In this document: positions 9,001 through 12,000 of the stretch, in pieces
Layout: each line of letters starts with the position of its first letter
Numbering within the stretch: position 1 is the stretch's first letter
DNA from: a virus
Taxonomy: Duplodnaviria > Heunggongvirae > Uroviricota > Caudoviricetes
Length of the DNA stretch: 45,637 bases
Direction: 5' to 3' (one strand)
IMG/VR virus record: IMGVR_UViG_2529292910_000009
Span: 1 to 45,637 of that record
Made by a program: the position numbers

Positions 9001-12000
9001 CCGCCCAACTGGTAATCCCTTGTTGAATTTTTTGCTGCTGAATTTGCTGCTGATACTGCGGCAGTCCCATCGAAGCATAATATTGCGTCACTGCTCCCTG
9101 CGCATCACCGCCGTCCTGTGCAACCTTTATCGCTACCTGGCTGGCTCCTTTCTGAAGTTGATCCGCAGAAAGTCCCTGCTGCTTCGGCGTGAAATAGCCG
9201 AAATTTTTCGAAATTTCCGCGAATTTACTGCGATCCCTGACAAGCTCAACAGCCTTATCAACAGGCACCGCCAGCACGGTTTGATCATCAGGATGTGCAC
9301 TGCCGTATTCCGTAACGGGTTTATGTGCTGTAGAGCCATCACTGTATGTGAGATCAAGGCCGATAAGTATGTACCCTTCCTGCTGTGCCGGTACTATACT
9401 GCCAATCCTGGCCTCTTTTATCGTCTTTTTCCCGGTTGAATCGGGCATGCCAATACGCTGTTGCAGTTCCGGGCCAAACACCCCGGAAAGGACATCAAGA
9501 TTCTCCGGCGTATTAAGTGAAGCGATAGCCCTGTCTGGCTTGTCATCAAAGATTTTTTGCAGGTTGTTCACGGCCTGACCCGCTTTCGCTACATAGCCAT
9601 CATTCGCCATCAGCCTCAGCGGATTACCCTCTGACAACTGGCCGTAAAGACGCATTGCTGCATCCCGATCGCCAGCATCCACAGCCTTTCCAAGCGCCGC
9701 CATCACAGGCTGATCGCGCGCCAGCATATCGTTATACTCAAGCCGTCGCTGGTTGTATTTCTGCATCCGGAGTCGCTGCTGCTCCATACCCAGCGACGCA
9801 TTCCGGTAATTCTGGTTGGCGTTAAACTCCCTTTGCGGGAATTTCTCACAACACGCTGCATATACCGGAGAATTTTGTCGTCCATTCTCTCACCAGAAAC
9901 GGGTGCCATATCGGCTGAACCTCAGCAACCAGTTGACGGGGACTTTCGTCCCCGTCGCGGTTTTCCTACTGCTTACACTGTAAGAACGCCGCAAACTCCG
10001 CTCCCCACAAATTCAGCCGGAACTCACACAACGAGCCGTGTAACATCCAGATGGTGAAGATTACCGTCATACAAATTGTGACGGTGATGAGCGATTTTTG
10101 CGACATAGCGCTTGCCTCCTGAGTGGAGAGGCGCTAACCTTCTACTTGCTTAAGGTATGATGGTTAGGGCCTCGGGTTAAACAAAATGTTTGACTCGGGG
10201 CCTTTCCACATCAGGCCTTCAGGTTCACCTTCCAGCCATCAGCCGAAAGGCACCCGCGCATAATCTACGATTTTTGCCCTGCACGGGCAACAAAAAACCC
10301 GCCATCACAGCGGGTTATGACATGTTGTCGGGTATTACTCAGAATTTCAGGCCAATGCCTGCAAATAAACCATCAGTTTTCCAGTCGCCAGAGCCTGAGC
10401 TTTCATAAGTGACGTCCATAGTAACACTTTCATTGAAGTTAAATTGCGCGCCGACAGACCATGCAATAGACGTTTTTTTGGTGCTGTTACTTTCAGAAAA
10501 ACTACCTACACCACCATTAAGATTGTCGTTAACTTTCAAATCATAAGTTACTTTTGCAACCGTAACACCTGCCATTGAATACACACTGAGGTATTCATTA
10601 AACCGCCACGAAGGACCGGATAGTAGACTCCAGTAATTAGCCCTGATATCAGTTCTCGCTGAAGCTGCCGGTTTTTTTACCTCTCGTGATGGATCGGAAG
10701 GCTTAACATCAATGAATGCCTGTGCATTAGTCATGGATCGAGCCCATGCAAAAGAGGTTATAACACCGATCTCATCCGTAATCTCATAACGATACTTAAT
10801 GTTCATTCCCAAGGGACTTTTCTCTTTACCATCATGGCCCCGGACAAACGCATCGTCATATTCTCCAGGTGAATTGAAATAGTTTTTATTCACAAAATTG
10901 TTAAAGGTATCAAGGTTATGAAGACTTAAATCCTTAACAAAATTATTCAGCCCGGATAGCTGAAGGTGAGCGAATCCAAGGGATACGGTACTATCACCAG
11001 ATGCAGCATGTGCCTGTGCAGTTAATCCACCTAAGCCCAGAGTTGCGCACACAAGAAATTTTGTGATACTTTTCATTTTAAGAATCTTCCTATATTAAAA
11101 ACATTGTTCTCTCTGTCCTTTCCACATTTTTGATTATTTACCATCCTGCCTGGAAATAAAAATAAAAATTTTTCTTAAAATGATTGATAAATTTTATTGT
11201 GCTAATCATACATTGAAGTATTAATAACAAGAACTTTGTCTACATAAGGCTTTCGAATATCCCATGTTGCACCACCTGAATAATGCTCACAGGAATATAT
11301 TTTATTTCCTGTAGCGCCAGTGGATGTGGTATAAATCGGTCGGTCATAAGGAGTTCTTTTCCAGTTATAATACCCGACCAGTGCAGGCATAATTGCGCAT
11401 GGATATCCAAGGTCCTTTTCAAATTTGATATCAACAGGTATTAACTTCGCGTCAAGCAGCATCATTTCGCCATGGTAAATCATCTCACCCAACGGATTAT
11501 ACATGGCGATACCATACTCAGAAGGTTGAGTAACCATATTCGCAAAAGCATAAACAGTCGTAACACCAGGATTCGTTCCCCTGACAATTTGATGAAGCCT
11601 TAAGGCATGATATCCATCAATCTGTTCATGCGTGTACATGACATCGGCCTTCTTCTCTGTTCTGATAAAGAAAAAACAACTTTTTCCTGACGGAATTGAC
11701 GTTTTAAAAAAAGCCTTCTCAGTCGCCGGAATAGTTCCCTTATTGATAAGACACTGAGGCGTAAACCCCGGGCTTATCCACAAGCTGCCATCTGGTTTCG
11801 TAATGCTTAAACCATACATACAACTCACCCCCAGAATGTATAAATATATGACCCCATCCCCTGCTCAAGATTTGACCACATCACCGTATTGCCATTAATG
11901 GTTATCTTCGGTACTTTCCGGTCCTTAAATACATTATTCCACGGAAATAATGAACAGACTGCCTGCAATGTTTTCCCTTCTGGTTTATTCGTATACGTTT

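Follow-up and report, generated by a model that had tools for sequence, protein, structure and literature searches.

A HokA-like toxin gene in a 933W-type prophage and its probable type I toxin–antitoxin cassette lacking a conserved mok frame

The stretch of DNA studied here, referred to below as the window, corresponds to positions 1 to 45,637 of the virus record IMGVR_UViG_2529292910_000009 and is a mosaic 933W-type (Sepvirinae) prophage in reverse orientation. Positions 9900-10275 very probably constitute a self-contained type I toxin–antitoxin cassette of the Hok family, carried by the prophage as a moron and encoding a 46-aa HokA-like peptide on the minus strand; the gene is called hok46 below. 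The gene is genuine and conserved and encodes a HokA-like membrane toxin of the Hok family; this finding is already known, hok46 being annotated, catalogued and reported toxic. It carries little weight for genome annotation, as the gene is already in PGAP, in PHROGs and in a published catalogue. The residual interest lies in the regulatory layout, which has no mok leader frame, and in the unannotated presence of hok46 in the widely studied phage 933W, and probably also in Sp5.

The coding region comprises the following features:
9966..10106, minus strand: hok46 coding sequence (CDS), 46 aa, Hok/Gef family, HokA-like; identified from the list of open reading frames (ORFs), Pfam, PHROG, the RefSeq CDS extent and the ratio of nonsynonymous to synonymous substitution rates (dN/dS).
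10115..10120, minus strand: Shine-Dalgarno (SD) sequence AGGAGG, separated by the 8-nt spacer CAAGCGCT from the ATG at 10106.

The frame opens with the ATG at 10106 and closes with a TAG ending at 9966, and its product, MSQKSLITVTICMTVIFTIWMLHGSLCEFRLNLWGAEFAAFLQCKQ, is exactly the peptide quoted in a preliminary description of the window, which had proposed both this 46-aa minus-strand ORF and its membership in the Hok family. The alignments bear the proposal out. The peptide matches the Pfam profile HOK_GEF (PF01848) with 33.2 bits at a cut-off of 22 (E = 4e-8; residues 8-44 on profile positions 6-42 of 42), and phrog_251 (“MokW-like host killing”) over its full length with 85.8 bits. Among the five K-12 paralogs (NC_000913.3), HokA is the closest, with 45% identity, compared to 24-35% for HokB, HokC, HokD and HokE. 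The best NCBIfam model is also HokA (NF007290), with 38.4 bits against an equivalog cut-off of 89, K-12 HokA itself scoring 129.7; judged by these scores, the label “HokA-like” is apt and “HokA” is not, as the equivalog cut-off is missed. The SD sequence is present as well, the distance of 9 nt given for it earlier being the 8-nt spacer under another counting convention, and relatives have AAGGAG at this position.

The layout of the peptide is that of a Hok protein, with a hydrophobic N-terminal helix, an L-C-E motif and a second cysteine in the C-terminal part. Averaged over 11 residues, Kyte-Doolittle hydropathy is 1.3-2.5 for residues 4-26 and falls to about 0 in the region of residues 22-38. 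The 46-aa product thus agrees with the general Hok description, a peptide of approximately 50 aa which has a hydrophobic transmembrane segment towards its N-terminus and is polar in its C-terminal part. A census of 1,264 Hok peptides reports M1, C16, T18, L30-C31-E32 and E41 (numbering of the census logo) as conserved in more than 80% of them (Escalera-Maurer et al., bioRxiv 10.1101/2025.08.07.668861, version January 2026), and all of these residues are present in hok46, as M1, C12, T14, L26-C27-E28 and E37. Both cysteines, C27 (SLCE) and C44 (QCKQ), are hard-coded, as in HokA, and TadA-dependent Tyr-to-Cys recoding is therefore unnecessary for hok46. HokA of K-12 and E. coli C also shares with hok46 the MxQK N-terminus and the FTxWM, SLCE and AAFLxCK motifs, but is 50 aa long and annotated with a mokA frame, which has no counterpart in hok46.

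The database search yielded 56 relatives, nearly all of exactly 46 aa, in E. coli, Shigella and Salmonella, and a genome scan added relatives of about 47 codons in E. albertii and Citrobacter braakii. The length of 46 codons is kept in 20 of the 22 diverged hok46 loci, and the median dN/dS is 0.24; for both reasons we consider the frame to be maintained as a protein.

The preliminary description had called the ORF unlisted, and this holds for some records and fails for others. In the 1999 GenBank record of 933W, the reference Stx2 phage, the 430-bp gap between lom and L0129 has remained unannotated, though hokW, mokW and sokW are listed elsewhere in it; the identical 46-aa peptide is encoded in that gap (AF125520, 45660-45800, corresponding to 1661-1801 of our locus L008), and many records of Stx2a phages have no feature at this position either. 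On the other hand, RefSeq/PGAP carries the identical 141-nt CDS (WP_000078907.1, “Hok/Gef family protein”), the record of phage Lyz12581Vzw annotates the gene under the same name, and PHROGs includes the family.

The peptide is also sequence 72_1589 of the Hok census, a member of cluster 72, which is one of the high-abundance clusters at 60% identity and includes 72_1621 as well (bioRxiv 10.1101/2025.08.07.668861). It was cloned as pAZ3::72_1589 (LRP157) and is listed in a table entitled “All experimentally tested Hok sequences”, while the text of the preprint gives 42 of 45 homologs as toxic and names 19_179, 60_1482 and 69_1540 as the only non-toxic ones. As 72_1589 is among the tested constructs and absent from these three, the preprint in effect reports it as toxic upon arabinose induction in E. 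coli, and the toxicity test proposed for hok46 appears to have been made by others. At the peptide level there is no difference between hok46 and 72_1589; the cassette anatomy described here is additional to the preprint.

The distribution of the cassette was assessed by a blastn search of the cassette region against 5,426 complete E. coli genomes. It is present in 1,750 of them, about a third, with up to nine copies per genome. In diverged copies (75-83% identity) homology is confined to window positions 9901-10275, and these copies occupy four unrelated settings. Stx phages have it between lom and L0129, P2-like prophages at their end, past ogr, and lambdoid prophages between gpJ and the gene for the tail fibre; the fourth setting is beside ykgM. 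Since copies from unrelated contexts share only this segment, the approximately 375-bp cassette is the mobile, conserved unit, a compact one that recurs in these three kinds of phage or prophage as well as at chromosomal sites outside phages. In six loci (L018, L019, L020, L023, L030 and L031) it lies directly downstream of ogr in P2-like prophages integrated at different sites (tRNA cluster, serS, ihfA-pheT), a typical moron position. Two Salmonella contigs contain tandem direct 46-aa hok cassettes about 494 nt apart (L028, 701-841 and 1195-1335; L029, 701-841 and 1191-1331), and the L028 pair adjoins a YafO-type toxin gene.

A scan of genome contigs returned only seven loci, three of them in implausible hosts: near-identical enterobacterial hok cassettes in assemblies labelled Xanthomonas pisi, Planococcaceae metagenome-assembled genome and Vagococcus sp. 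(L009, L010 and L012), which are most likely contaminating contigs. One implausible-host locus contains Ns and was dropped.

On the opposite strand, two elements overlap the start region and the leader of hok46:
10112..10140, plus strand: candidate antisense promoter, -35 box TTGCCT (10112-10117), 17-nt spacer, -10 box TAACCT (10135-10140).
10148..10206, plus strand: predicted Sok-like RNA of about 59 nt (both ends predicted), with an unstructured 5' stretch of about 20 nt, a hairpin of 16-18 bp (10168-10202) and a terminal UUU.

A search for an antisense Sok-like promoter had been suggested as a check of the preliminary description, and by its sequence features such a promoter is present. Its hexamers and their spacing are identical to those in the HokD/HokW-type locus found elsewhere in the window, and TAACCT is the -10 box that was mutated, with primers YO-421/422, in the promoter-less sokW construct (Takada et al. 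2021, PMC8621323). All 22 relatives have such a promoter, of the form TTGNNN or TTTACT, 17-18 nt, TA(A/T)CCT. The predicted RNA folds with -30.5 kcal/mol, and the hairpin is likewise found in 22 of 22 relatives at -21 to -31 kcal/mol, with upper stems that vary in sequence but keep pairing. The predicted length agrees with the annotated SokB, SokC and SokE (57-60 nt), and the RNA is complementary to nucleotides 50-108 of the hok46 leader. The conserved promoter and the terminator-like hairpin thus point to an antisense RNA gene of hok46's own, whose expression is predicted.

The cassette, of about 375 bp (9900-10275), and its predicted transcript are delimited by the following features:
10296..10316, minus strand: intrinsic terminator of lom, nine pairs followed by TTTTTGTT, from a terminator scan; upstream boundary of the cassette.
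10262..10290, minus strand: putative hok46 promoter, -35 box TTGCCC (10285-10290), 17-nt spacer, -10 box TAGATT (10262-10267).
9897..10255, minus strand: predicted full-length hok46 mRNA of about 359 nt, from the span of homology and the fold.
10239..10256, minus strand: tac-like 5' element, (C)GGGUGCC UU UCGGCUGA.
9900..9918, minus strand: fbi-like 3' element, UCAGCCGA UAU GGCACCC(G), which pairs with the 5' end.

The predicted start point is G10255, 7 nt past the -10 box, which in relatives reads TAGATT, TAGAAT, TAAATT or TACATT. The segment from 10255 to 9897 folds with its two ends paired to each other, at a minimum free energy of -158 kcal/mol (z = -7.6), and the two terminal elements (10239-10256 and 9900-9918) are complementary in two perfect 8-nt blocks of inverted repeats. 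This 5'-3' complementarity has the tac/fbi geometry of hok mRNAs in general. Moreover, GGGTGC at the 5' end is invariant in the leaders of hokW, hokC, hokB and hokE, which can be aligned with the hok46 leader. In a permissive local search limited to positions 9700-10500, the leader matched the full Rfam model RF01794 (1-157) with 41.9 bits (E = 6e-8), starting at 10255; the 933W copy of hok46 scored 35.6 bits on the same model.

Covariation was assessed with an alignment of 22 sequences of the cassette, using RNAalifold and then counts of paired positions with slid and shuffled controls. RNAalifold recovered the 5'-3' closure independently. Of the cells, 97.3% are paired, as compared to 36-45% with slid partners, and cells with changes on both sides number 60, against 20.7 in shuffles; none of 500 shuffles reached 60. 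The three pairs adjoining GGGUGCC/GGCACCC (columns 41-43/396-398) are all compensatory (UA/CG, CG/GC and GC/AU, roughly 10 to 9).

The downstream L0129-like gene has its ATG (GATATGGCACCC; positions 9907-9909 in the window) inside the fbi element when the copy is from a Stx phage, and copies in other contexts have GATAAGGCACCC at that position, without an ATG. Either the start codon of the L0129-like gene is supplied by the 3' end of the cassette, or the gene call is arbitrary.

Four further structures are found within the predicted mRNA:
10107..10135, minus strand: hairpin enclosing the SD, with outer stem AGCGC/GCGCU and inner stem CUCC/GGAG (anti-SD/SD); RNAalifold columns 156-160/181-185.
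10128..10173, minus strand: Sok-target-type hairpin, GAGGCCCUAACC...GGUUAGCGCCUC, an inverted repeat of 15 nt with 87% complementarity.
9986..10106, minus strand: long-range start-codon helix, in which the AUG and first codons (10091-10106) pair with the distal CDS (9986-10001).
9927..9962, minus strand: double stem of the 3' untranslated region (UTR), with outer stem AACCG/UGGUU around a 9-bp GAAA hairpin (9935-9956).

In the SD hairpin 99% of the outer-stem cells are paired, and 84.5% of the inner-stem cells in the column register, the inner stem of the window copy pairing one position off register. The Sok-target hairpin has 95.5% of its cells paired, as compared to 30-52% when slid. Since nucleotides of its 3' arm also belong to the 5' arm of the SD hairpin, the two are mutually exclusive. 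The start-codon helix (columns 187-195/302-310 and 199-202/295-298) has 96-99% of cells paired. The hairpin of the 3' UTR, noted in the preliminary description as a 9-bp GNRA-type structure, proves to be a perfect stem that covaries: its arms of 9 nt (9935-9943/9948-9956) are 100% complementary, the 4-nt loop reads GAAA on the coding strand, the structure begins 10 nt past the stop codon, and two-sided changes occur in five of its nine pairs, while 98% of the outer-stem cells are paired. By analogy with R1 hok mRNA, the double stem is likely the stop point for 3' exonucleolytic trimming. A terminator-like match on the plus strand at 9934-9957 was rejected as the same hairpin read on the other strand, with no plus-strand gene entering it.

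A related, characterized system in the same phage type is hokW-sokW of Sp5/933W (Takada et al. 2021, PMC8621323), which has in common with hok46 the -10 box TAACCT, the 5' GGGUGC, the layout of the leader and a Hok-family type I toxin. However, the peptides are only about 33% identical, and for this reason an identification of hok46 with hokW was rejected; an in-frame mokW 57 nt upstream exists for hokW alone, hokW passes the Rfam gathering score while hok46 does not, and hokW has been assayed in its native context, whereas hok46 is known as a CDS construct. In 933W the two genes are about 13 kb apart.

The feature that sets hok46 apart is the mok frame. An overlapping mok-like frame had been suggested as a further check on the preliminary description, and none is conserved. 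Three frames were translated by hand and the 22 family members were scanned, with rare starts included for the window copy and canonical loci as positive controls. No ORF from ATG, GTG or TTG reaches the hok SD in the window copy and ten relatives, nor does any from rare starts in the window copy; the remaining relatives have only non-conserved open frames, so that no conserved mok was found among the 22 members. In the positive controls hokW, hokC and hokB the mok ATG was recovered at -57 or -58. ATGs at -130 and -103 were considered as mok analogues and rejected; they are open in some members and stop before the SD in the window copy. A further difference from canonical leaders is a deletion of 8 nt immediately in front of the hok46 start codon.

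The R1 hok/sok/mok (parB) system shares with hok46 an mRNA of about 360-400 nt closed by tac/fbi pairing, a stable hairpin past the stop codon, a leader-directed antisense RNA of about 60 nt, and a sequestered SD. It differs in having mok, whereas hok46 lacks it, has the deletion mentioned above and a largely non-canonical tac stem, and carries its SD 8 nt before the AUG in a hairpin of its own closed by AGCGC/GCGCU. The regulatory logic of R1 hok/sok is established knowledge.

By analogy with R1, the full-length closed hok46 mRNA would be stable, untranslated and unbound by the antisense RNA. Slow trimming from the 3' end to the double stem at 9927-9962 would strip off the 3' pairing element and allow the leader to refold. 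The short-lived Sok-like RNA would then pair with the leader, and the duplex would be destroyed, as it is by RNase III in R1 and hokW. Toxin would be made only once the antisense RNA has run out, and would insert into the inner membrane and collapse the membrane potential. As no mok frame is present, translational coupling is impossible in hok46, and translation would therefore start directly at the toxin's own strong SD.

For this mok-less state we propose a switch at the SD. The segment AGCGCCUC (10128-10135) may be contested, as it could pair with GAGGCC in the Sok-target hairpin or, within its own hairpin, with the SD side; antisense binding to the Sok-target side would favour closure of the SD. 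In an equilibrium folding model, mean SD accessibility is 0.019 for the full-length form, 0.080 for the truncated form and 0.019 for the truncated form with the Sok target masked; the direction is consistent with the proposal in 19-20 of 22 members, and the magnitudes are small. The SD switch is thus weakly supported by the model, which we do not count as support for the window copy. As a tentative and rather doubtful extension, the cassettes of cluster 72 could form a mok-independent branch of hok/sok, with translation at the own SD, a three-way RNA switch and a Sok-like RNA that locks the closed form instead of blocking a leader peptide, possibly redundant with hokW-sokW in Stx phages. If true, this redundancy would explain why deletion of hokW-sokW only halves phage release. 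In any case, with mok absent and selection still acting on the peptide, on the 5'-3' closure and on the antisense gene, the subfamily is a natural test case for control of Hok without a leader peptide.

Several observations weigh against a functional cassette regulated in this way. A consensus promoter scan missed both the hok and the Sok promoters, each scoring below the 9/12 threshold, and the promoter calls rest instead on conservation and on identity with the -10 box of sokW. The RF01794 score of 41.9 bits is lower than the gathering value of 59, the long 5' stem consists largely of non-canonical pairs, and the Rfam search at the gathering threshold did not match the hok46 locus. No compensatory (two-sided) changes were found in the Sok-target hairpin in the 22-sequence alignment, this hairpin being called from its conservation. 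The window copy itself has no SD-switch effect (0.018, 0.022 and 0.028 for the three states), its SD being mostly paired in every state. In R1, Hok is not synthesized unless Mok is translated as far as the hok SD; without mok, translation of the native hok46 mRNA is open to doubt. According to its text, the preprint assayed the CDS alone behind a constant SD, with Mok, Sok and mRNA elements outside its analysis (bioRxiv 10.1101/2025.08.07.668861). Finally, the transcript ends, the antisense RNA and the toxicity of the cassette at its native locus are predictions from sequence.

A possible alternative, which we consider somewhat doubtful, accepts the identity of the cassette and assigns it a task other than maintenance of the prophage: hok46 may act in the lytic cycle as hokW does, towards earlier lysis and release, via read-through of the late operon downstream of lom, or in abortive-infection defence. 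In Sp5 hokW-sokW speeds lysis, and its deletion halves phage release without abolishing it (Takada et al. 2021, PMC8621323). The cassette of Stx phages lies in the late-gene direction immediately after lom, and since the related 933W encodes the identical peptide, the hokW-sokW mutant of Sp5 probably kept hok46; the hokW-sokW work in this closely related phage was thus probably done with a second hok still present. As to defence, the introductions of the cited papers implicate R1 hok/sok in it. However, the cassette also occurs after ogr in P2-like prophages and at non-phage sites, where late read-through is unexpected, a section title of the preprint states that hok is not enriched near defence systems (bioRxiv 10.1101/2025.08.07.668861), and a lytic or defensive role of this particular locus is conjectural.

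The main rival reading, which is disfavoured and in our opinion distinctly unlikely, is that the locus is a silenced relic: the peptide would be toxic if its synthesis is forced, but the native mRNA would never be translated after the loss of mok, leaving inert baggage of the kind proposed for the chromosomal hok loci of K-12. It could draw on the SD being more than 90% paired in all modelled states, on chromosomal hokA, hokB and hokC reportedly showing no post-segregational killing (as quoted in bioRxiv 10.1101/2025.08.07.668861), and on the decay of the host prophage right beside the cassette. Degenerate copies do occur: L024 (543-921), on a Salmonella chromosome beside a cation-efflux gene, has the ORF together with the Sok-side features and retains GGCACCC at the 3' end, but the 5' GGGUGCC is absent, and this copy is probably a 5'-truncated cassette, deregulated or dead. 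But frame and amino-acid sequence would not be preserved in a gene that is never translated, and the peptide is under purifying selection with its 46 codons retained as described above. Compensatory changes maintain the long-range pairing, none of the 22 relatives has lost the antisense promoter or the hairpin, the loss of mok is common to the whole subfamily and not a private lesion, and the cassette has been acquired repeatedly by unrelated prophages and duplicated in tandem in Salmonella.

That the ORF arose by chance beside an ordinary 3' hairpin or terminator, as might be thought from its unremarkable 46 codons and from several overlapping ORFs of similar size in the same stretch, is already refuted by the family matches above threshold and the conservation (56 homologs of conserved length under the low dN/dS), and is further contradicted by the reported toxicity of the identical peptide and by a hairpin with covariation and without a coding-strand U-tract.

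Beyond the cassette, which we take to be a Hok-family toxin–antitoxin unit, the window contains a second hok gene:
29955..30276, minus strand: second hok locus, a 51-aa HokD/HokW-type toxin with a canonical mok/sok leader.

The preliminary description had placed this gene at 29952..30107; it is real, with the CDS at 29955..30107 on the minus strand and a HOK_GEF score of 79.7 bits. Its leader matches RF01794 with 116.9 bits at 30102-30276, and a mok ATG is located at -57. The peptide shows 94% identity to HokD of the K-12 Qin prophage and 86% to HokW of 933W; an assignment to hokW, suggested by the first 21 nt common to both, was rejected as the gene is closer to HokD. It adjoins the replication genes (30573-34250), whereas hokW of 933W is situated at the right end. 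Two hok genes are reported in only 3.5% of hok-carrying phages (bioRxiv 10.1101/2025.08.07.668861).

The distal late region of the prophage appears to be decaying. Compared to E. coli FORC_069, a deletion of 2,019 bp is present right after the cassette, between flanks of 99.7-99.9% identity (junction 9833|9834). The L0130-, L0131- and L0132-like genes are gone entirely, the L0129-like gene has lost its 3' part and the L0133-like gene its 5' part. The deletion has left a 68-aa stub (9703..9909) and an N-truncated ORF of 330 aa (8795..9787; residues 89-434 of the 443 of phrog_601). Further on, at 2893-8726, the giant L0134-like gene (phrog_616, a profile of 2,793 positions) is split, with 7887..8726 covering profile positions 1-236 and 2893..8013 covering 1019-2701.

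Above the Rfam gathering thresholds, the window contains sRNA-Xcc1 at 287-375 (69.1 bits), STnc100 at 24871-25032 (76.8 bits), C4 antisense RNA at 28043-28127 (66.0 bits) and isrK at 28153-28230 (69.2 bits); the adjacency of C4 and isrK suggests an immunity region of the antirepressor type.

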